Shown here: piece by piece, positions 1-14,416 of the stretch
Layout of the letters: every line of letters begins with the position of its first letter
How positions within the stretch are numbered: position 1 is the stretch's first letter
Assembly: GCA_038061225.1 (NCBI GenBank)
Contig: JBBTZT010000005.1
Coordinates: 19,646-83,645, forward strand
Origin: Patescibacteria group bacterium
Lineage (GTDB): Bacteria; Patescibacteriota; Microgenomatia; UBA8517
DNA length: 64,000 nucleotides
Direction: 5' to 3'
Position numbers and translations under genes: made by a program
Notes under the pieces: model-generated
Database searches by the model: none
The model's input: the letters and a program-made list of their open reading frames with translations, nothing else
What the model was told of the DNA's origin: nothing

Positions 1-501
1 ATCATATTTTTCACCTAATAGGATGTTTGTAACGAAACATCTAATAAACATTTCATGAGATACAACTACAATACTTTTATTTAAATAGTTAGTTGTTAAA
101 TTATTTTTGAAATTAAATGCACGTTCTGAGACCTCTCTTATCGATTCTTCATTATTTTCGAATTTCCAATCAAGATCACTGTAATTTTTGATATTCTCAT
201 CGTTATAACGTTTACTTATATCACTTTGTCTATCAACTCCATAAATTTCTGAATATTGCTCACGTTCCTGAATTCCGTCAATTTGCTCAAGTTTTTTATC
301 AAGTAATTCTGAAATTATTTTTGCTGTTTCTATTGCTCTTTTCCACTTACTGGATAGTATTAAATCCACTTTTTTGAACCGAGATAGAGTAGATAAGTTT
401 TCAGATTGTTTTACCCCTGTACCACTAAGTGGAGTATCAGGAGTCTGCCATTTTTCTCTTGAACCTGAACCTTCTGCATGTCTAACTAGAAATATAAACA
501 T
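1..501 (-). CDS. Histidine phosphatase superfamily protein (phosphoglycerate-mutase-like), 3' end beyond window
   Basis: Manual minus-strand translation from the ATG at 501..499: MFIFLVRHAEGSGSREKWQTPDTPLSGTGVKQSENLSTLSRFKKVDLILSSKWKRAIETAKII...VVVSHEMFIRC. It has the RHxE catalytic His motif, the SxxxRAxxTA motif and a VSHxxxIR motif. There is an in-frame TAG upstream of the ATG. The ORF runs off the window start, so it is absent from the ORF track. Confidence 0.6.
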   Translation of the reverse strand, partial: MFIFLVRHAEGSGSREKWQTPDTPLSGTGVKQSENLSTLSRFKKVDLILSSKWKRAIETAKIISELLDKKLEQIDGIQEREQYSEIYGVDRQSDISKRYNDENIKNYSDLDWKFENNEESIREVSERAFNFKNNLTTNYLNKSIVVVSHEMFIRCFVTNILLGEKYD

Positions 502-525
502 ATTTAGAAGTATATCATCCTATTT

Positions 526-1302
526 TCATTTTGTACCAACTGCCACCACACCAACGACAGATTCATCAAGACCATCAATATCAAGCAGTTTGTTAATTCC
601 TTTGTCGTTAAATCCACCAATTGAGCAAACCCCAAGACCCAAACCAGTTCCCATTAAATATAGATTTTGAGCCATGTGTCCATATTCTGTCAAAATATGT
701 CTATAGCCTCTGTCCTTATATTTAACTTCAGTTCTGTCAAATACAGCTGTAATAATAAATAGCAATGCTGACTTTTTAATCCAAAGTTGATCAAATTGAC
801 TTATAACTTCTTCTTTTGAAACATCATCCAAGACACATTCTAGAGAATGAGTTTTAACGTGATAATGATATATACCCTTTTTTATTTTCTCTACATTGAA
901 AACAATTGGATATACTTCTAATGGATATCTCGCTCCGCCTGATGGATAATTTCTTTTTTCACCACTTTTACTGGAGTCTCTTATTCCAGCAGAATAATAA
1001 ATAAGATCAGAAAATTTATTAAGATTTATTCTATTACTAGCAAAGTTTCTGAATGATTCTCTTTCCAAAATTGTTTTTTCAAGATCTATTTTAATTGCTG
1101 TTGGGGTAGGTAGAATCAATTGATCAAACCTAGGATATGCTTTGTGATACACTTTTTTCCATTCTGATGGCCATGACTCTCGAGGAGTTTTCTTAAACGC
1201 TTTAAAATCATCAATATTTGTAGATATATGAAATTTTCGTGAATTAGATAGTCCTTCAACGCATTCAATTAAACTTTCAATTTTGTCATTTATTTTTGTC
1301 AT
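526..1302 (-). CDS. SagB-type dehydrogenase (nitroreductase superfamily, TOMM/LAP azoline oxidase-like)
   Basis: 258 aa. It has the YPSGGARYPLEVY hallmark of SagB/McbC-type dehydrogenases. It lies 3 nt downstream of the YcaO gene on the same strand. Confidence 0.75.
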   Translation of the reverse strand: MTKINDKIESLIECVEGLSNSRKFHISTNIDDFKAFKKTPRESWPSEWKKVYHKAYPRFDQLILPTPTAIKIDLEKTILERESFRNFASNRINLNKFSDLIYYSAGIRDSSKSGEKRNYPSGGARYPLEVYPIVFNVEKIKKGIYHYHVKTHSLECVLDDVSKEEVISQFDQLWIKKSALLFIITAVFDRTEVKYKDRGYRHILTEYGHMAQNLYLMGTGLGLGVCSIGGFNDKGINKLLDIDGLDESVVGVVAVGTK

Positions 1303-1305
1303 ATT

Positions 1306-2649
1306 TTATAAAAATGGATGAGGAAATTTATTTAAATTCAACTCTAATTTTCTTTTAAATCCAAGTTTTTCAGGAATACTATATAGCCTATCTCCACCTA
1401 ATAGTGGATATTTTTCATTAAGGTAAATCGGTTGCATTTTTGGAATAATTACTTTTACAATATGATAATTAAGTTTTTTAAATTTTTCTATAGTTATATC
1501 TTTATAATATAAGTCATATTTTTTATTTTTAAATATTTCAATTAACGTTTTTAGTTTTTCCCCTGATTTCATTAGATTACTAGAATAATTAATATCTTTT
1601 ATATTTGCATTTTCTATCCAAAAATTGATATTTTTAATTGCTTCTGTGCCATACCACAAGAAACCTCTTAGTTTGATATCTGAACTTTTTTGTAAATCCT
1701 GGATATTAACTTTCATTGGCTCATCTTCAAAACTTGATCTAAGCCATGATCGTGTATGAAGTGCTTCTTCAATAGATCCACTAATTGCTTTGATTATATC
1801 AAAATCGCATTTTAGTCCGACAGATACAGCCTTACCAATTCCAGAGCGATTTATTATAATTGATGCAATAGTTGGAATTTTAATGTCTGTTGTAATATCT
1901 AACACTACAACTTCAAATTTATACCTATCTAAAATCAATTGTAACTTTCTAATTTCAGGATTATCTATATTTCTAAGGTTAATTTTTGAAGGTGTAATTT
2001 TATTAAGATAAAAAATCATAAACGAATCACGTTCAACAACTTCACAAATTCCTCGAACTATAGCAGCTGAGATGTTTGCACCACCTGCCACTCCCGTACT
2101 GATAGCTGAATAAATAGATGGCTCATTCTTTAGATATGGATATGAAAGATATATAAATTGTGAAGGTATCAGATATTGTTTATCAACTAATAGAGAAATA
2201 CAATCGGTCCATCTAAAAACAGAATTATTGTCAATTCTGAATTTTTTAAATTCATCCTTCTTAAGTTGGTTTTTCGAAAAAGCTGATATTGATCTAGGAT
2301 CAATAAAATTACAATTCATATGATTAATTGATTTCGTAGTAAAAGTTGATTCTTTTTTAAAAAAGAAGTTACAATATCTTTCTGTAGATTCACACAAGGA
2401 TTTTAACAATGCCTCCTTTTGTGAATGAAGTGAAGCTCCCGAAGACTTTGAGTGAAAATGTCTACCATCATTTTTTAAAAATAAATCATTTAGATCAGCA
2501 GAATAATACCAAAATTTAGGTTCATCATAATATTGACGAACTCTTTTAATTTTTTTAATTAATCCGTAATCCTTATCGACAAGACAAGACAAAGACAATA
2601 AAGTCCTATCTATATCTTGCTCACTTTCGCTATATAGATTCTGTATCAC
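1306..2649 (-). CDS. YcaO-domain protein (ATP-dependent cyclodehydratase-type)
   Basis: 447 aa. It carries the YcaO ATP-binding motifs SGASLHSQKEALLKSLCESTERY and GVAGGANISAAIVRGICEVVERD. It starts 8 nt downstream of the precursor ORF. Confidence 0.85.
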   Translation of the reverse strand: MIQNLYSESEQDIDRTLLSLSCLVDKDYGLIKKIKRVRQYYDEPKFWYYSADLNDLFLKNDGRHFHSKSSGASLHSQKEALLKSLCESTERYCNFFFKKESTFTTKSINHMNCNFIDPRSISAFSKNQLKKDEFKKFRIDNNSVFRWTDCISLLVDKQYLIPSQFIYLSYPYLKNEPSIYSAISTGVAGGANISAAIVRGICEVVERDSFMIFYLNKITPSKINLRNIDNPEIRKLQLILDRYKFEVVVLDITTDIKIPTIASIIINRSGIGKAVSVGLKCDFDIIKAISGSIEEALHTRSWLRSSFEDEPMKVNIQDLQKSSDIKLRGFLWYGTEAIKNINFWIENANIKDINYSSNLMKSGEKLKTLIEIFKNKKYDLYYKDITIEKFKKLNYHIVKVIIPKMQPIYLNEKYPLLGGDRLYSIPEKLGFKRKLELNLNKFPHPFL

Positions 2650-2657
2650 TTTTTGTG

Positions 2658-2843
2658 TTATTCACCTGAACCACCTGAACCTTCACAACCGCAGCTTGCT
2701 GCACAATCAGACTCACAACCACAACTTTGTGCACAATCCGCTGTACATGCTGAATCACAGTCAGAAGTTTCCATTTTGATGCTTTTTGTTTCCATCATTG
2801 GCTTAGCGTCTCTCAAATCTCTATTTTTGTTTATTAATTTCAA
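2658..2843 (-). CDS. RiPP precursor peptide, Cys/Ser-rich core (LAP/TOMM-like)
   Basis: The 74-codon ORF in the track (2658..2882) begins at a TTG. The better start is the TTG at 2843..2841, which is preceded by a strong SD (AAGGAGGTGA, 8-nt spacer). The resulting 61-aa product is MKLINKNRDLRDAKPMMETKSIKMETSDCDSACTADCAQSCGCESDCAASCGCEGSGGSGE. It has nine Cys at regular xxxC spacing with adjacent Ser/Thr. It sits immediately upstream of YcaO. Confidence 0.6.
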   Translation of the reverse strand: MKLINKNRDLRDAKPMMETKSIKMETSDCDSACTADCAQSCGCESDCAASCGCEGSGGSGE

Positions 2844-2887
2844 TTTAATCACCTCCTTAGTAAATTCGTAAGAATAATACAAGCAGA

Positions 2888-2915
2888 ACTATATCAGAAA
2901 TGATCAAATAGTCAA
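2888..2915 (-). promoter_or_regulatory. Candidate sigma70-type promoter for the precursor-YcaO-SagB operon
   Basis: On the minus strand there is TTGACT (plus 2915..2910), a 16-nt spacer and TATAGT (plus 2893..2888). This lies ~45 nt upstream of the SD and TTG start. Confidence 0.4.
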
Positions 2916-2987
2916 TAACTTATGGGGCTTATGGGTATATTTAAAATTGGCTTGTCAAGTTGTAAACAAGTTTGGCACTTTAACTCG

Positions 2988-3047
2988 TCAGAACTGACTC
3001 GTTAAATTGTAAATTGGCAGGATTATTGCAATGACTAAAAATCCAAC
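2988..3047. repeat. Direct repeat copy A: duplicate of the pilC 3' terminus (candidate attL/attR-type island boundary)
   Basis: It matches 7833..7892 over ~60 nt (30+14+8+5 identical, 3 mismatches). All 3 mismatches are synonymous in the pilC frame. The copy still encodes ...VGFLVIAIILPIYNLTSQF* preceded by a stop. Confidence 0.7.
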
Positions 3048-3066
3048 ACACTATCATGCAATTTGG

Positions 3067-4404
3067 CTATTTTATTTGTAAAGCTTCAATAAAATTCTTA
3101 TCAAATTTATCAAATCTCTCCGTTAGTATAGGATCTAGATAGAAAAATGGCTGGTGTGAGTAATTTGAATTAAAAATTTTTCCATAAACAGGTAGATAAC
3201 CCTTTGTCGTTAACATAATTCTAAATCCCACATTTATATCAAAGTTCTTACCGACATACCCGCTTCCGTGGAATGATGATAGTTTTGTAGATCTATTGAT
3301 AGGATATAAAGTTAAACGATCTATAATATTATGCATGTCGCATCTAATAGAATCTGGATATATATATTCTACTGGTTTAGTTAATCTTCCAGACACAATT
3401 TCAGAAATATAATTTATAGTAAAACTCCATGTATCATGGACGATCTTTTGCCTAAGTATATTAATTTTTTCACTAGAATTTTTAAAGTTGAATATATCTT
3501 CAAAAACATGGAGAGTTAAATTATCTTTATCTTTTGAAGATTTAATTTCATGTACATAAATGCAATAAATTAAAGACATATAGAGGGCAATAAATTTATT
3601 TGCTAATTCTTTATCTTTAGCTGAACTCAAAATCTTCGAAATGTTTAAGAGAGGATCTTTAAGATTGATATACTTACCAAACATCTTTGTATAATTTGCC
3701 CTTGTTTTTAAAAAGATTTTTCTTTTTTCAAATTTAATTTCTTCTGGAAGAAATTTGTCTAAAGTCTTAACATAATCTACAAGCTCGACATATCCTTCTA
3801 AATTTAAATGTTTGGAAAATAATAACAAAGTCGTTTGATATTTATTAATTATTTCATCAGGAAAATTTAAAATCTGTTTAAAACGATACCCATCCATTAA
3901 AACAATAAATTTAGCTCCAACTGGATAAATATATTTTACAGCCAAACATATTTCCTTTAATCTTGCCAAGGAAGCCAAATCTGCTAGGTCTGGTAACAAA
4001 TCTGCACTCTTTAATAAATTTGGTATCTTGCAAGGAAATAAAGAGATAGTGAGTCGAATTGGTAAATTTTCTTTTATTCTATCAGAAACTTTTTGGTACA
4101 AAATATCAAAACCACTACTTTCTCTAGTACCACCCCTATATCTTCTTGCCATAAGTACTTCTACAACCATCCGATTGAGATCAGTTTTCTTACCATTCCT
4201 AAATTTCTTTTTAACTCTCTCTGCTATTTTAGACGCGTTTTTCTCTATCAATTGATTTATTTTTTTTGAAAGTAGCAGAAATAATTCATCATTCATTGTA
4301 AAATTAGTGTTTTTTCTTGATACAAATTTACTTGTTTTAAGATTAATAGATCTTAATGACGAACAGCTGATTAAAATTTCATTTTTGCTAAAAATATTTT
4401 TCAT
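3067..4404 (-). CDS. Hypothetical protein, 445 aa (island cargo)
   Basis: The ORF is intact and overlaps the upstream gene's stop by 4 nt (ATGA). Motifs FPCKIPN ... YPVGAKFIVLMDGYRF weakly recall the Dit1/PvcA isonitrile-synthase family. This is from memory only and unverified. Confidence 0.35.
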   Translation of the reverse strand: MKNIFSKNEILISCSSLRSINLKTSKFVSRKNTNFTMNDELFLLLSKKINQLIEKNASKIAERVKKKFRNGKKTDLNRMVVEVLMARRYRGGTRESSGFDILYQKVSDRIKENLPIRLTISLFPCKIPNLLKSADLLPDLADLASLARLKEICLAVKYIYPVGAKFIVLMDGYRFKQILNFPDEIINKYQTTLLLFSKHLNLEGYVELVDYVKTLDKFLPEEIKFEKRKIFLKTRANYTKMFGKYINLKDPLLNISKILSSAKDKELANKFIALYMSLIYCIYVHEIKSSKDKDNLTLHVFEDIFNFKNSSEKINILRQKIVHDTWSFTINYISEIVSGRLTKPVEYIYPDSIRCDMHNIIDRLTLYPINRSTKLSSFHGSGYVGKNFDINVGFRIMLTTKGYLPVYGKIFNSNYSHQPFFYLDPILTERFDKFDKNFIEALQIK

Positions 4405-5630
4405 ATATTTTGTAAATCAATAATGTTTCCTGGCAACTCTTTATCTACAATTTTTTGAATTGTTTGCCAATAATCTTTTATTTCCGATAATTCCTTTTCT
4501 GTAGCTGGTGTTTTGTCACGTCCGAATACAATAGGTACGTCTTTATTACATAAAGTTTTGGATGAACAAGCGGTGGTGATGACTCTAGGGATAATATCCA
4601 ACCTAAATTCAGGAGATTCTTTTGAAAAGGAAAAGTTAAATGCTCCAGAGAAACCTTTTGATATCCAAATCTGGTTGGCTTTAGTTATTATTCCCTTTTC
4701 TCTTCCTGGAGCAGCTGCCACTAAATTATTTGCAAGATATTTAAGTAATACGACAGAATCTCTTGATATAAAGTTTTGTTTATTCAAATAGGTACTTAAT
4801 CTTTTAACACGATCTTTTCTTGCTCTTGGAATATATCTTTGAGTAGTAAAATCTAATGATTTATCGGTGAAGACTTCCTGAATTTTGTTATACTCGCATC
4901 TCATATTGGTATATAAATTTACTAATCCTGGGAATAAACTTTTAAAATTCTTGGTGTCTGAAAAATATATAGATGTAAAACCAAAGTTTTCTTCCAACCT
5001 ACTGAAACCTTGATTTGGAAATAAATTCTTTTTTTCCTTCAGAGATATTATAAAATCATGGAAGATTTTTGAAAATGGCTCGATAAGAGATAATCTATCA
5101 AACCAATTTAGTTCACTCCATGATATTGACGTTAGATTTTTATTCAACACAGAATCTTCAACTAAATAAATATGGGAGTGTAATCTTTTTAAAGTATGGT
5201 TTCCCAAAAGCGAAACATCTTCAGAATTGAAACCTAGTGTTATTTGGACGTTTTTATTCCCAAAATCTAAAAGTTTGTTCACCATAACTTGATTGACAAT
5301 AAGTAATTTCTCACCCTCAACTTCAGTAAGATCAGTGATCGAAGAAACATCTCTGTCTGGCTCGCCAATGAAAATGTTCACATCCCTCAAACCGAATGAA
5401 TAGCTTTTTGGTGTAATTAAGTAATCTAAGTGTGATCCTTCAAATTTAAGAGCAGCAAGAGGAAGAATTCTTTTTCTAAACTTCAACCAATCTACTGAGT
5501 TAGCTTCTGTATTATTCAACGGTGCCATAAAATATAAAGGTCGATGAATTTTTCCAACATTCATCGATTTTGCTTTTAACATTTGGTCAAAAATAGGGTT
5601 TTCTATCATGTTATTTAATAGTAAGAACAT
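4401..5630 (-). CDS. Hypothetical protein, 409 aa (island cargo)
   Basis: The ORF is intact with no recognisable catalytic motif. It is translationally coupled to its neighbours. Confidence 0.35.
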   Translation of the reverse strand: MFLLLNNMIENPIFDQMLKAKSMNVGKIHRPLYFMAPLNNTEANSVDWLKFRKRILPLAALKFEGSHLDYLITPKSYSFGLRDVNIFIGEPDRDVSSITDLTEVEGEKLLIVNQVMVNKLLDFGNKNVQITLGFNSEDVSLLGNHTLKRLHSHIYLVEDSVLNKNLTSISWSELNWFDRLSLIEPFSKIFHDFIISLKEKKNLFPNQGFSRLEENFGFTSIYFSDTKNFKSLFPGLVNLYTNMRCEYNKIQEVFTDKSLDFTTQRYIPRARKDRVKRLSTYLNKQNFISRDSVVLLKYLANNLVAAAPGREKGIITKANQIWISKGFSGAFNFSFSKESPEFRLDIIPRVITTACSSKTLCNKDVPIVFGRDKTPATEKELSEIKDYWQTIQKIVDKELPGNIIDLQNI

Positions 5631-6663
5631 CTAACTGGTCAAGACGCGTTTTTATTCTAGAGAATAAATATTTTATATATTTATTCTCATTAAAATTGGA
5701 ATCTGCAAATTTCCTTGATTCCAACTTTTGGGGTGTGAAACTCCAAAGAAGAATACCTATCCAATTCAATGCCTGTAGAGGAACAAAGATTTTAACTCTA
5801 TCTATAATATCTTTTGGTAACATTGACTCACTTCGATATTTATTTATAAAATATCTTATATTTTCATTAGATAGACCCCAAGATCCTTCATGTGTTACAA
5901 AATTTGCAACTATTTTAGAAGGGTCGTCCCATCCAAAATACTCAAAATCTATGAAACATACATCTCCATTATCTTTAAAAATTGCATTATGAGGTCCAAA
6001 ATCTACTGGGCTTAATCTCATTAAAGAGTCATCTATTTCTTCGGAGAAACTATCACCGGACATTCTTTTTAGATTTTTTATTTGACCGTTAATTCGTTCC
6101 AAAACTTTGGTTCCCTTTGAAAAATTAACAATATCTGGACTTGTCTTAGGTGTCTTAATTAATTCTTCAAATTTTTTGATCTTTTCCAAGATTACATTTG
6201 AAAACTGTTCAGCTGATTGTGTAGAAAGAACAGCATTTGGAAAATTCTGTTTTGTTTCAATAGGTTTAATGTTTTGTATTTTAAAAATAAATGACAGGAA
6301 TCTGTCTAAATCCTTTTTAACTAATTCTCTTCCAGATTTCACTATACCTGTTTCAAAAGAGTAAACCGCATAGCCTTTATCCTCATCTTTAAAAAAAGGT
6401 ACGGGTAATCTTGTTTCTCCAAGGCTTCTTAAATATTTAAAAGCTGAAAATTCTCTATTCAATCTATTTCTATCATCTTTAAAATATCGTTTAAATAAGT
6501 AACTTTTTCCGTTCTCCGAACTTACTTTAAAAATTTTATTATTAAAACCACCATCCAAGCTTTCAAACTCATCAATCGATATTCCAAAATGTTTTGCTAT
6601 TACACCTTTTATAATAGAAGAATCTTCTTGTGTTTTGTTTTCTTTCATTTTTGTTTTACTCAT
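5611..6663 (-). CDS. Aminoglycoside-phosphotransferase/choline-kinase-like kinase (APH fold)
   Basis: 350 aa. It has the Brenner-type catalytic/Mg-binding region HNAIFKDNGDVCFIDFEYFGWDDP (HxN...IDFE) typical of the APH/ChoK/CotS family. Confidence 0.6.
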   Translation of the reverse strand: MSKTKMKENKTQEDSSIIKGVIAKHFGISIDEFESLDGGFNNKIFKVSSENGKSYLFKRYFKDDRNRLNREFSAFKYLRSLGETRLPVPFFKDEDKGYAVYSFETGIVKSGRELVKKDLDRFLSFIFKIQNIKPIETKQNFPNAVLSTQSAEQFSNVILEKIKKFEELIKTPKTSPDIVNFSKGTKVLERINGQIKNLKRMSGDSFSEEIDDSLMRLSPVDFGPHNAIFKDNGDVCFIDFEYFGWDDPSKIVANFVTHEGSWGLSNENIRYFINKYRSESMLPKDIIDRVKIFVPLQALNWIGILLWSFTPQKLESRKFADSNFNENKYIKYLFSRIKTRLDQLDVLTIK

Positions 6664-7354
6664 TTATCAAGTTAATATCGTCAATTGTGCACTGGTCTAC
6701 CTTCCATTTTGTAACATCTGATAAATTTTTTTTACCTTCAAACCCTTTAAAGATATGGGTATGTACTAATAGTTCGGATTTGTGTAAATTGTTTACCAAA
6801 TCAGCATTACCAAATCTATTTAAAACTGAAAAGGGTACGTGCGCAACATTTGCTTGTGACATTTTAGTCCAACCGATAATTTTGTTCGTAACTAACCCTT
6901 GAGACATCCAGTCCTGAAAAATAAAATTATGCATAATCAATCCTAATTTTAATTTAGGAAAAATATCCCTGATATATGGTAAAAGTGGAACTTCACTTGT
7001 AGTTAATTCTATATCTGCTTTAGAATATTGTTTTAGTTGATCCTTGAGAATCGGAAGTATCTCAGTATTCATAGCTTTAATCTCTATTTCAATCCTTCCT
7101 TTGTTGTGAATTTTGCTAAGAATTTCGTCTAGTCCTGAATAATCAGACTCTATCGAAGAGATATAATTGTGTACTATCATAATTTTTCCATTTCGAAGTT
7201 GAATATCCATTTCAATTCCATCAGCCCCATTCAAAAAGGCTGAATTGAAAGCGTCAAGAGTATTTTCAAGAAAATGAACAGTATCCCCTCGATGGGCAAT
7301 AAGAAGAGGTTTATACCTAAAATTTTCAAACTTTTCTTTTGGAGCTAGCGACAT
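6656..7354 (-). CDS. Glycerophosphodiester phosphodiesterase family protein
   Basis: It has LIAHRGDT...ENTLDAFNSAFLNGADGIEMDIQL, the GDPD/UgpQ-type active-site region. Confidence 0.65.
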   Translation of the reverse strand: MSLAPKEKFENFRYKPLLIAHRGDTVHFLENTLDAFNSAFLNGADGIEMDIQLRNGKIMIVHNYISSIESDYSGLDEILSKIHNKGRIEIEIKAMNTEILPILKDQLKQYSKADIELTTSEVPLLPYIRDIFPKLKLGLIMHNFIFQDWMSQGLVTNKIIGWTKMSQANVAHVPFSVLNRFGNADLVNNLHKSELLVHTHIFKGFEGKKNLSDVTKWKVDQCTIDDINLINE

Positions 7355-7411
7355 TTACCTATAGTATCACTATTAAGACAAAATGGCAAAAAAACAGCTT
7401 CTTTAATATTT

Positions 7412-7831
7412 TTAGATAATTAAGCTTTTGTATTTAGATAGTCTAAGTTTTACAGCACTGGTAAGCTTTAGTTTTGTTAGTTCTTTCAAATTGAAGAATT
7501 TTATTGCTTGACCTTCGTCCTGTCCTAACTTAAATAATTTTACTTCATCATTGTCGACCGTTGACAAAAATGTATATGAATATTTTCCGTCATCCTTTTT
7601 AAATTCTCCAATATATTGAAGCTCTTTGGGTACATGTGTAATTTCTTCTTTAAGTTCTCTTTTTATTGCTTGGAGTGGAGTTTCATTTTCATTCATCCGC
7701 CCTCCTGGGAGATGCCAATAATTGGGATATGGAATATCTTTTTTGTCGTCTCTATGAAATAGAAGCAACTTATTTTTATAAGTTATTAAAGCGAAAACTG
7801 AATTACTTGCAATCCAATGGTTAATATTCAT
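7412..7831 (-). CDS. NUDIX hydrolase
   Basis: It has the Nudix box GGRMNENETPLQAIKRELKEEI (GX5EX7REUXEEXGU). Confidence 0.7.
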   Translation of the reverse strand: MNINHWIASNSVFALITYKNKLLLFHRDDKKDIPYPNYWHLPGGRMNENETPLQAIKRELKEEITHVPKELQYIGEFKKDDGKYSYTFLSTVDNDEVKLFKLGQDEGQAIKFFNLKELTKLKLTSAVKLRLSKYKSLII

Positions 7832-10105: not shown

Positions 10106-11821
10106 TTATTCTTGTGCTACACGCAATATTTCTTCAATCGTTGTTTCACCAGCTAAAACTTTCAAATAACCGTCCTGTTTTAATGTTATCATACCTTCTT
10201 CCTTTGCTTTAGTTTCAATTTCTGATGCAGGAGATCTTTCAAGAATCATTTTACCAATAGAATCGCTAACTGGCAAAACTTCAAAAATACCAATTCTCCC
10301 ATAATAGCCTGAATTGCCACAAGCCTGACAACCTTTACCTCTTGAGATTTTTGATAATGCGTCTTTTGGCCACAGCGGCCCGAGGACGCTTTTCATTTCT
10401 TCAATGACTTTTGGATCAAGTTCATAATTTTCTCTACAATCTTCATGAATTTTTCTGGCAACTCTTTGAGCCATAATTGCAGTCATTGAAGAAGTCAAAA
10501 GATAAGGCTCGGCTCCCATGTCAAGCATACGAGGCAAAGCTCCGGCAGCATTATTGGTATGAAGTGTAGAAAAAACCAAATGCCCGGTTAAAGATGCTTG
10601 TATGGCAAGATCTGCAGTTTCTTGATCTCTAATTTCTCCCACCAAGATAATATTTGGATCCTGTCTTAAAAATGATTTAAGTCCTGAAGCAAAAGTAAGA
10701 CCTACTGCGGGATTAATTTGAACTTGATTAACTCCAACCATTTTATATTCAATAGGATCTTCCAAAGTAACAATATTTACCTTAGGAGTATTTATTTTAC
10801 TTATGATTGAATAAAGAGTTGTAGTTTTACCTGACCCTGTTGGGCCACAAATCATAATAATTCCATGAGGCCGGAGTATTGCATCTTGTAAATTTTTTAA
10901 AGCTTTTCCACGAAGACCAAGAGTAGGAAGATCGGGGACACCGCCTGTTTTTTTAAGAAGACGCATAACAATCTTTTCACCCCACGTTGTAGGAAGTGAA
11001 GAAACACGAAGGTCAGTGTCTTCACCTGCCGCTTTAAAATTAAATCTACCATCTTGAGGAATTCTTTTTTCATCAATTTTCATTCCCGAGAGAATCTTTA
11101 TTCTAGAAGTTAATGATTCATGCAATTCTTTTGGAATAGTTAATTTTTCAACTAAAATTCCATCTATTCTATATCTAACCCTGGTGGACCTTTCTTCTGG
11201 TTCAATATGAATGTCACTAGACCTTGATTTTACTGCAAATTCTAAAATATGAGATACTATTTCTGAAATTTTTTCTTCTTTAATAAAACCAATTTTTAAA
11301 TTATCTTTGATATTTGATTTTTTCTCAGGTGCAACATCTTTTAGGGCTTCTGTAACTTCTTGAGAAAGTGATGTCTGATATCTTGTTGTTATAACATCCC
11401 CCAATTTATCTTCTTCAACAGCTACAGGTTTAACTCTAAGGCCTGTTTTTCTTTCTACAAACTCAATAGCAGTTAAATCAAGCGGGTCTGCCATGGCAAG
11501 GGTAATTGTTTTTGCAAGTTTATCTATTGCAAGTGGAAAAATATTAAACTTAGAAGAAATGTCTTGCGCTAAAACAGACATGGCTTCAGGAGATGATGGG
11601 GAAGTAGCGAGGTCTGCATAAGGAATGTTATAAAGTGTTGCTTTGGCGCGAACGAGATCTGAATTTGAGACTAAATTTTGTTTTTTAATAATTTCTTCTT
11701 GAGTGGTGCCATACTGCACCTCAGCCATTTTAATCTGTTTGGCACGTTCTTCAGTTAAAGCACCCATCGAAATTAAAATATCTGAAAGACTATTTCCTGT
11801 AGCAATGGCAGTATTGGGCAT
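10106..11821 (-). CDS. pilB: Type IV pilus assembly ATPase PilB (GspE family)
   Basis: 571 aa. It has a GspE N-domain plus Walker A GPTGSGKTTTLYS and a tetracysteine motif. Confidence 0.85.
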   Translation of the reverse strand: MPNTAIATGNSLSDILISMGALTEERAKQIKMAEVQYGTTQEEIIKKQNLVSNSDLVRAKATLYNIPYADLATSPSSPEAMSVLAQDISSKFNIFPLAIDKLAKTITLAMADPLDLTAIEFVERKTGLRVKPVAVEEDKLGDVITTRYQTSLSQEVTEALKDVAPEKKSNIKDNLKIGFIKEEKISEIVSHILEFAVKSRSSDIHIEPEERSTRVRYRIDGILVEKLTIPKELHESLTSRIKILSGMKIDEKRIPQDGRFNFKAAGEDTDLRVSSLPTTWGEKIVMRLLKKTGGVPDLPTLGLRGKALKNLQDAILRPHGIIMICGPTGSGKTTTLYSIISKINTPKVNIVTLEDPIEYKMVGVNQVQINPAVGLTFASGLKSFLRQDPNIILVGEIRDQETADLAIQASLTGHLVFSTLHTNNAAGALPRMLDMGAEPYLLTSSMTAIMAQRVARKIHEDCRENYELDPKVIEEMKSVLGPLWPKDALSKISRGKGCQACGNSGYYGRIGIFEVLPVSDSIGKMILERSPASEIETKAKEEGMITLKQDGYLKVLAGETTIEEILRVAQE

Positions 11822-11854
11822 GCATTAATGATATCATATGTTTATATAAATATG

Positions 11855-12391
11855 CATGCGTTTTTGTTAATTAATACAAATCCAAAAGAATTTGCCACAA
11901 AACAAAAGGCAAAACAGATTCCGTTTAGATTACAAAAAATTGATGATGTTAGAGAACTTAAAAAATTTGTTAAGTTTAGCTTCGCTCTAAAAACTGCAAT
12001 TATCATTGAAGATATTGATAAAGCTACAGTAGAAACACAAAATGCTTTTCTTAAAAATTTAGAAGAACCAAACAAGAATTTGATTTATGTATTAACAGTT
12101 AGCAATTTGGAGAATGTATTACCAACAATAGTATCTCGATGCCAAGTAATTAAGATCCAAGATCTAAGATATAAGATGTATGACAAAAACGCAAACTACA
12201 AGGATGCGTTGAATATTAAAGATAGGGGAGAGGCGATTAAATTTGTTGAAAATCTAATATATATAGATCATGAAAAAAATATTTTTCAAAATCAAGAAAA
12301 TTATTTACAGTCTCTGAAAAATTTAAAAGCAAATGGTAATGTCTCGTTGCAGTTACTAAATTTAGTTGTTAAAATGAACAGCCAGAGATAA
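11855..12391 (+). CDS. holB: DNA polymerase III delta-prime-like clamp-loader subunit (short, degenerate)
   Basis: It has TQNAFLKNLEEP (like ALLKTLEEP) and TIVSRCQ (like TIxSRCQ). The start is probably the ATG at 11855 rather than 11828. Confidence 0.5.
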   Translation, partial: HAFLLINTNPKEFATKQKAKQIPFRLQKIDDVRELKKFVKFSFALKTAIIIEDIDKATVETQNAFLKNLEEPNKNLIYVLTVSNLENVLPTIVSRCQVIKIQDLRYKMYDKNANYKDALNIKDRGEAIKFVENLIYIDHEKNIFQNQENYLQSLKNLKANGNVSLQLLNLVVKMNSQR

Positions 12392-12469
12392 TTTTCAATT
12401 TTTAATTATCAATTTTCATTGAATTTTCAATGATATAATGATTAATTGTTAATTGATTGGAAATTGTAA

Positions 12470-14416
<1,947 letters not shown>

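Follow-up and report, generated by a model that had tools for sequence, protein, structure and literature searches.

LAP clusters that pair a YcaO with a nitroreductase are known from CPR bacteria: the bioinformatic survey of Sharrar et al. (2020, mBio) reported 110 of them in 93 genomes, and the accessible text of that paper illustrates a Microgenomates example with an 84-aa precursor, a YcaO, a nitroreductase and a peptidase (PMC7298704). The locus described here lies in a 64-kb stretch of contig DNA from an ultra-small groundwater bacterium that we analysed as a whole (the window), belongs to the same host group and encodes the same core set of a small Cys/Ser-rich precursor, a YcaO and a nitroreductase-type dehydrogenase; since LAP clusters in CPR bacteria were published in 2020, this kind of cluster is already known. 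Its subfamily differs from the published example, as far as the accessible text describes the latter, in having acidic cores, an R-x-x-x-D-A-x-P leader motif and a phosphatase and kinase, and in having no peptidase. Neither acidic cores nor this leader motif nor a phosphatase/kinase pair is mentioned in the accessible portions of Sharrar et al. (PMC7298704), and we conclude that the cluster is a rare, acidic version of the known CPR kind whose accessory genes are unusual.

The closest solved homologues of the two catalytic domains are MusD, TruD, LynD and CyaGox. The first three align with the YcaO profile at E values of 6e-39 to 3e-35, including the C-terminal P-x-P-F, and CyaGox aligns with the oxidase profile at E = 2e-30. 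These cyanobactin and muscoride enzymes carry about 370 (heterocyclase) or about 237 (oxidase) extra N-terminal residues, which are E1-like/RRE leader-binding domains and which are missing from the window enzymes; the window module is also without the cyanobactin PatA/PatG proteases and without macrocyclisation. Microcin B17 resembles the window system in being linear, in its Gly/Ser/Cys-rich core and in its use of a YcaO (McbD) and the SagB-type McbC, both detectable homologues, but it requires the E1-like McbB, has a neutral core and shows weak similarity at the level of McbD (E = 6.5e-5). The C-terminus of microcin B17 is a Gly/Ser tail. Bottromycin YcaOs, according to the accessible text of two papers, likewise act without an E1-like, ThiF-like or TfuA partner (PMC7136475, PMC4603692). 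They form one thiazoline and a macroamidine on a follower-peptide substrate, whereas the window substrate has a leader and eight Cys residues, and no SagB-type oxidase is mentioned for the bottromycin cluster in the accessible part of PMC7136475. Heterocycloanthracin/sonorensin precursors (TIGR03601) also have repetitive Cys-containing cores, and 8 of 28 members of the window's precursor family match this profile weakly (best E = 1.8e-4); the window peptide itself gives no match at E ≤ 1 and falls outside TIGR03601, heterocycloanthracin clusters include a ThiF-like partner in the accessible part of PMC7136475, and their leaders are unrelated to those of the window family.

All features of the precursor locus lie on the minus strand. 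Read from its outer TTG, the ORF occupies 2658..2882 and encodes 74 aa; a second in-frame TTG at 2843..2841, 13 codons into this frame, yields 61 aa. The second TTG is preceded by the Shine-Dalgarno sequence AAGGAGGTGA (2849..2858), whose 10-mer ends 5 nt and whose GGAGG core ends 8 nt before the start codon. This sequence is invariant in the window, L002 and L003 (L numbers denote related loci) and occurs once in the 64-kb window, against 0.09 occurrences expected in shuffles. About 15 related loci have a start codon at the equivalent position behind the same kind of ribosome-binding site, a GGAGGTGA- or GGGGGTGA-type site 4–6 nt ahead of ATG (L007, L008, L009, L021 and L022), GTG (L010) or TTG (window, L002, L003, L006 and L011). 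In-frame stop codons lie just 5′ of the equivalent start in several related loci, so the 74-aa form is not general. The initial annotation had proposed translation from the SD-preceded second TTG, and the equivalent starts, their SD sites and the upstream stops bear it out; on these comparisons we assign the true start to the SD-proximal TTG, giving a precursor gene of 61 codons plus stop at 2658..2843. Its product reads MKLINKNRDLRDAKPMMETKSIKMET, SDCDSACTADCAQSCGCESDCAASCGCEG and SGGSGE in succession (complete sequence, MKLINKNRDLRDAKPMMETKSIKMETSDCDSACTADCAQSCGCESDCAASCGCEGSGGSGE), in exact agreement with the leader, core and tail strings given in that annotation.

Public gene calls for the peptide range from 46 to 75 aa. 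On the source contig, which comes from the 0.1 um fraction of Hainich groundwater, the ENA call opens at an internal ATG and gives 46 aa; we rejected this start because RDLRDAKP, the most conserved part of the leader, lies upstream of that ATG and would be removed. At the other extreme, a promoter-like site composed of TTGACT, a 16-nt spacer with TG, and TATAGT lies at 2888..2915 and is a consensus match only (10/12 positions). It is the top-scoring match in a scan of 400..3200, is also kept in L002, and would place a putative transcript start near 2881, at about the first TTG. On this placement and the upstream stops in relatives we rejected the 74-aa start.

The downstream YcaO served as query against genome and metagenome collections and led to 22 related loci; four of these (L002, L003, L006 and L007) have recognisable orthologues of the small ORF. 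At first, second and third codon positions the gene differs from L002 at 3, 2 and 17 sites and from L003 at 2, 3 and 14 sites, and dN/dS is 0.04 at dS 0.93 for L002 and 0.07 at dS 0.55 for L003, synonymous sites in both comparisons being half-saturated or more; against L007, dN/dS is 0.18. The third-position differences and the dN/dS values of 0.04–0.07 indicate strong purifying selection on the peptide, and we regard the 61-codon ORF, on this comparative evidence, as a real and strongly conserved gene. A Cys-rich small ORF stands beside YcaO in most related loci and directly upstream of it in about 15, with an exception to this position in L012, where the Cys-rich candidate follows SagB; none was found beside YcaO in L005 and L019. 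Loss of the small ORF from orthologous loci, which the initial annotation had named as the observation that would count against the gene, was thus not what we found. The window holds no detectable second copy of the precursor.

The precursor defines a small family. A profile built from ten members retrieved 31 clusters (90% identity). When 1.84 billion representative proteins were searched exhaustively with HMMER at E ≤ 1e-3, the yield was 25 clusters (50% identity), all of 53–114 aa and none with a name or Pfam domain for any member in public sources. Pfam and NCBIfam searches with the precursor gave no family at E ≤ 0.01, and at E ≤ 1 the precursor and its family gave only sub-threshold matches to TIGR04117 and TIGR03601. 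Alignment to the precursors of homologous YcaO clusters, which had been suggested as a check, reveals a shared leader motif and a shared core framework across 25–28 members. The leader motif RDLRDAKP (residues 8–15, 2799..2822) corresponds to the family consensus R-x-x-x-D-A-x-P, a presumed recognition sequence; every member has D12 and P15, and at least 90% have R8 and A13. The framework of the core reads D36-C37-x-x-S40-C41 ... A49-S50-C51-G52-C53, with C37, C41, A49, C51 and C53 invariant, S50 invariant or nearly so, and D36, S40 and G52 nearly invariant; the stretch between leader motif and first Cys varies in sequence and length, and the tails past the framework also vary. Family cores are acidic throughout (on average 4.8 D/E and 0.2 K/R per core), so that the acidic residues remarked on in the window peptide are real and family-wide.

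The predicted core and tail of the window peptide together comprise residues 27–61 (SDCDSACTADCAQSCGCESDCAASCGCEGSGGSGE, 2661..2765, with an inferred leader/core boundary) and contain 8 Cys and 9 Ser/Thr in 35 residues. The Cys residues follow a 4,4,4,2,4,4,2 spacing that is conserved in the window's own subclade only, and LAP substrates in general are not marked by the period-4 xxxC pattern. The view of this pattern as the classic substrate for azole installation therefore survives in part: a precursor role is supported by the position beside YcaO and SagB, but the period is confined to one subclade, and with no E1-like partner the classic form of installation is not fully matched. Two tandem 30-nt modules encode DCAQSCGCES (2738..2709) and, adjoining it, DCAASCGCEG (2708..2679), together spanning 2679..2738. 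Because the modules are identical at 8/10 residues in protein and only at 23/30 nt in DNA, they point to an old duplication retained at the protein level and not to a recent DNA repeat; the duplication reported at nucleotide level thus stands as two adjacent modules, but their nucleotide identity is merely 77%. The GSGGSGE tail had also been described as a doubled 9-nt repeat, and here the description is accurate, with two exact copies of GGTTCAGGT at 2681..2664 encoding GSGGSG. This tail is variable across the family: L003 retains both GGTTCAGGT units with two synonymous differences, and L002 lacks exactly 9 nt and ends in GSNE. We also observed that the tail codons (2649..2681) contain AGGTGA 12 nt ahead of the YcaO GTG start and that L002, with one repeat unit fewer, is likewise without the AGGTGA; coupling of translation to that of the YcaO gene may in part have shaped this variable tail.

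The YcaO cyclodehydratase gene (1306..2649, 447 aa) begins 8 nt after the precursor stop. Its product scores 277.9 bits against TIGR03604 (SagD family; cut-off 219.25) and matches Pfam YcaO at E = 6.6e-55. The ExxER ATP/Mg motifs E87, E90, R91 and E203, E206, R207 are invariant, and the protein is a bare YcaO domain ending in FPHPFL (P443-H-P445-F-L), its PHP motif conserved. A C-terminal PxP motif is typical of azoline-forming YcaOs, as stated in the accessible part of PMC7136475. The SagB-type FMN dehydrogenase that follows (526..1302, 258 aa) scores 163.1 bits against TIGR03605 (cut-off 78.4) with K194, Y195 and R198 of the K-Y-x-x-R motif invariant, and both enzymes look catalytically competent from these motifs. 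In profile-to-PDB alignments, YcaO family positions 28–444 map to MusD 373–781, TruD 410–781 and LynD 400–775, and SagB positions 37–253 map to CyaGox 238–463, the oxidase domain only; McbC is also homologous. With alignments limited to the catalytic domains, YcaO and SagB are bare catalytic domains, and these alignments reveal no RRE/E1-like leader-binding domain fused to either. Profiles TIGR03603, TIGR03882 and PF00899 matched none of eight neighbouring genes and nothing in L024–L030, no E1-like or ThiF-like gene was found in the modules of related loci, and a ThiF-like protein from L023, used as the single tblastn query against the 64-kb window, returned nothing. An E1-like or ThiF-like partner with a leader-binding RRE is needed "in most cases" by azoline-forming YcaOs, in the wording of the accessible text of PMC7136475. 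As no RRE domain or partner was found, RxxxDAxP may be read directly by YcaO, SagB or an accessory protein. The locus therefore has three of the features by which LAP/TOMM clusters are recognised, an adjacent Cys/Ser/Thr-rich precursor, a SagD-type YcaO and a SagB-type FMN dehydrogenase, but no E1-like (C) or ThiF-like (F) partner, fused or adjacent.

The fourth gene of the module encodes a PGAM-type histidine phosphatase (1..501, ATG at 501, RHAEG motif) and is truncated at the window edge. The phosphatase shares 88% identity with its L003 orthologue, which matches His_Phos_1 at E = 1.5e-26, and it has no signal peptide. A PGAM-type phosphatase comes next after SagB in every precursor-family locus with enough sequence, and an APH-like kinase (PF01636) follows convergently after it where contigs are long enough (L003 3026..4677; L024 10343..11934); the window's own kinase gene would lie beyond the window edge, and the kinase was read in orthologous loci. 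We compared modules by all-against-all clustering of the ORFs of these loci and of five further contexts reached by way of precursor homologues, and the order A–YcaO–nitroreductase–His_Phos_1–APH recurs in L002, L003, L006, L007, L011, L017 and L024–L030 within unrelated flanks. Catalytic motifs are kept in both accessory proteins, HxD[LI]H[DE]xQ and D[FL][EG]xW in the kinase and RHA[EQ] and SH[ED] in the phosphatase. As a separate observation, the kinase carries Gln in place of the Asn of the canonical HxDxxxxN motif, and a PDB sequence search with it gave no matches. L012 is rearranged, with phosphatase, kinase, YcaO and SagB on one strand and still linked; its sole Cys-rich candidate precursor (3975..4190) lies after SagB and is without the RxxxDAxP motif. 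The conserved module of this acidic-core subfamily includes no leader peptidase or exporter, and tblastn of the window for an M16 peptidase returned nothing.

A sister group whose YcaOs are 35–40% identical (L004/L014, L013, L015, L016, L018 and L020) has precursors that begin with a different leader and whose basic CxxC cores contain no acidic residues, for example at L004 4137..7701. In L004, L014, L016 and L018 an M16 peptidase replaces the phosphatase and kinase, the other sister-group contigs being too short. This sister group looks like the CPR LAP type published in 2020.

With YcaO and SagB directly downstream, the peptide is most likely the substrate of an azole-forming pathway (LAP), and we estimate a probability of roughly 0.8 that the 61-aa ORF is the precursor (A gene) of a linear azol(in)e-type RiPP modified by the adjacent YcaO and SagB; azole formation itself is suggested by enzyme family membership and gene linkage. 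The window's strongest ribosome-binding site would serve translation of the precursor, whose N-terminal leader would direct it to the enzymes through R-x-x-x-D-A-x-P. YcaO would then spend ATP on cyclising Cys, possibly with some Ser/Thr, onto the preceding carbonyl; the resulting thiazolines would be oxidised to thiazoles by the FMN-containing SagB flavoprotein. The predicted product is an acidic poly-thiazole peptide on the framework DC-x-x-SC ... A-S-C-G-C. The PGAM-type phosphatase and the APH-like kinase of orthologous loci would probably add or remove phosphate, in what could be tailoring of the Ser that precedes Cys or a self-protection cycle. Several features count against the azole reading. 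No E1-like, ThiF-like or RRE partner was found in the genes, loci and window searched as described above, the conserved module has no leader peptidase or exporter, and the residue preceding Cys is most often Ser or Asp, with Asp frequent there. Charged residues preceding Cys make poor substrates for at least the Balh cyclodehydratase. A more specific proposal, which we advance only tentatively, is that the locus represents a distinct LAP subclass of a small Microgenomates-type CPR clade, in which an RRE-less YcaO/SagB pair reads the leader and the kinase and phosphatase (de)phosphorylate or dehydrate an acidic poly-thiazole peptide.

The recurrent kinase and phosphatase raise the alternative of a hybrid pathway, which we consider doubtful but worth setting out. 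In class V lanthipeptide and thioviridamide-like clusters, dehydration of Ser/Thr is ascribed to PF01636 phosphotransferases (PMC7794033); beyond this class V lanthipeptide paper the searched literature offered nothing relevant, and no role for a phosphatase/kinase pair in azole-peptide clusters. The APH-like kinase might phosphorylate core Ser/Thr, such as the conserved Ser ahead of Cys, followed by elimination to dehydroalanine, or the phosphate might be kept, or removed by the PGAM-type enzyme, as a pro-drug or immunity switch. Such a pathway would yield an azole peptide that also contains dehydro- or phospho-residues, any dehydration proceeding as in class III–V lanthipeptides and thioamitides. 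The PF01636 kinase and His_Phos_1 protein are linked to A–D–B in every long-enough family locus, rearranged L012 included, their catalytic motifs are conserved, and S40 and S50 are nearly invariant. But no HopA1- or LanL-type lyase is encoded, a His_Phos_1 protein standing in the lyase's place, so that the pairing of PF01636 with a HopA1-type lyase beside the precursor that marks class V lanthipeptide and thioamitide clusters is incomplete here for want of a lyase domain; the kinase gene is beyond the window, and linkage alone does not make the peptide the kinase substrate. Because the phosphatase has no signal peptide, export-coupled activation like that in streptomycin biosynthesis is unlikely.

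Other readings give the Cys residues a different fate. The C-x-x-x-C and C-G-C motifs, the many carboxylates and a core framework that is conserved and not hypervariable would suit a Cys/Asp-rich, metallothionein- or metallophore-like peptide with its thiols free or few of them cyclised, serving metal handling and not antibiosis; we judge this improbable, given the tight recurrent linkage to YcaO and SagB with only 8 nt separating the precursor from YcaO, a conserved leader separate from the core as is typical of an enzyme-guided substrate, and a module with no metal transporter or regulator. That the YcaO instead installs thioamides or amidines on the peptide seems very improbable. Its homology to MJ1094, a methanogen YcaO of the thioamide-forming type, is detectable, but the protein scores 82.6 bits against TIGR03266 (cut-off 365) whereas its SagD-family score passes, no TfuA gene is present, its neighbour is invariably a SagB azoline oxidase, it has the C-terminal PxP motif, and the peptide has a Cys-rich core. 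Both chemistries have known examples of stand-alone YcaOs that lack an E1-like partner, according to the accessible text of PMC7136475. A radical-SAM target of the Cys-Xaa-Xaa-Xaa repeat or SCIFF/ranthipeptide type, next to YcaO by accident, is effectively refuted: TIGR04117 matches 10 of 28 family members weakly (best E = 0.019), but the window peptide reaches 12.6 bits against a cut-off of 50 and no locus has a radical-SAM gene in its module.

As the probable precursor of an azol(in)e-type RiPP, the peptide belongs to a module among the smallest azole-peptide pathways seen, with two catalytic domains and no recognisable leader-binding domain, and the module offers a compact test case for how a YcaO finds its substrate without an RRE. 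The constant linkage of kinase and phosphatase to the module suggests a phosphorylation step for which azole peptides offer no known precedent; if true, such kinase/phosphatase chemistry would be undescribed for this class. The literature we searched yielded no account of this precursor family and the leader motif and acidic core that define it, of how rare it is, of the absence of an RRE from both enzymes, or of an obligatory phosphatase and kinase. For CPR bacteria, with their tiny genomes and their attachment to other cells, any secondary-metabolite cluster that is kept is likely to be important to that way of life. Practical gains are a corrected start codon and the signature RxxxDAxP ... 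DCxxSC ... ASCGxC for finding the family.

The surroundings of the module provided several further observations. Module GC is 26–32%, compared with 30–38% in its neighbours, a slight difference that does not clearly indicate recent transfer. Between pilC and the precursor lies a five-gene island (3067..7831, minus strand) that is missing as a whole from the syntenic L002. Its 409-aa protein has no Pfam, NCBIfam or PDB match, its 445-aa protein matches the isonitrile synthase family DIT1/PvcA only over residues 105–230, and its third gene is choline-kinase/APH-like. We considered the upstream NUDIX, GDPD, choline-kinase-like, unknown and PvcA-like genes as part of the cluster and rejected them as absent at the same spot in L002; the flanks of the module also differ in L003 and L024–L030. 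No RNA family was found when the entire window was compared with Rfam at gathering thresholds. In L008, an 89-aa protein without a Pfam match and a 540-aa asparagine-synthase-like protein are encoded directly upstream of the precursor (1631..3509), recalling the RRE protein and cyclase of lasso peptides, and this pair could mark a hybrid or an adjacent second RiPP system. L002 (CAZSXP010000001.1) is titled "uncultured Gammaproteobacteria bacterium" and has the same PilB–PilT–PilC–precursor–YcaO–SagB order as the window; its proteins closely resemble those of the window, the YcaO at 82% identity. The YcaO of L003, labelled Candidatus Woesebacteria, is 90% identical, which places the window in that group, and the Gammaproteobacteria label of the L002 bin is probably wrong. 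Finally, cumulative GC skew reaches its minimum at about 11800..12500, where the divergent pilB and holB-like/gyrB genes meet; gene orientation by itself, or a replication origin close by, could account for this minimum.
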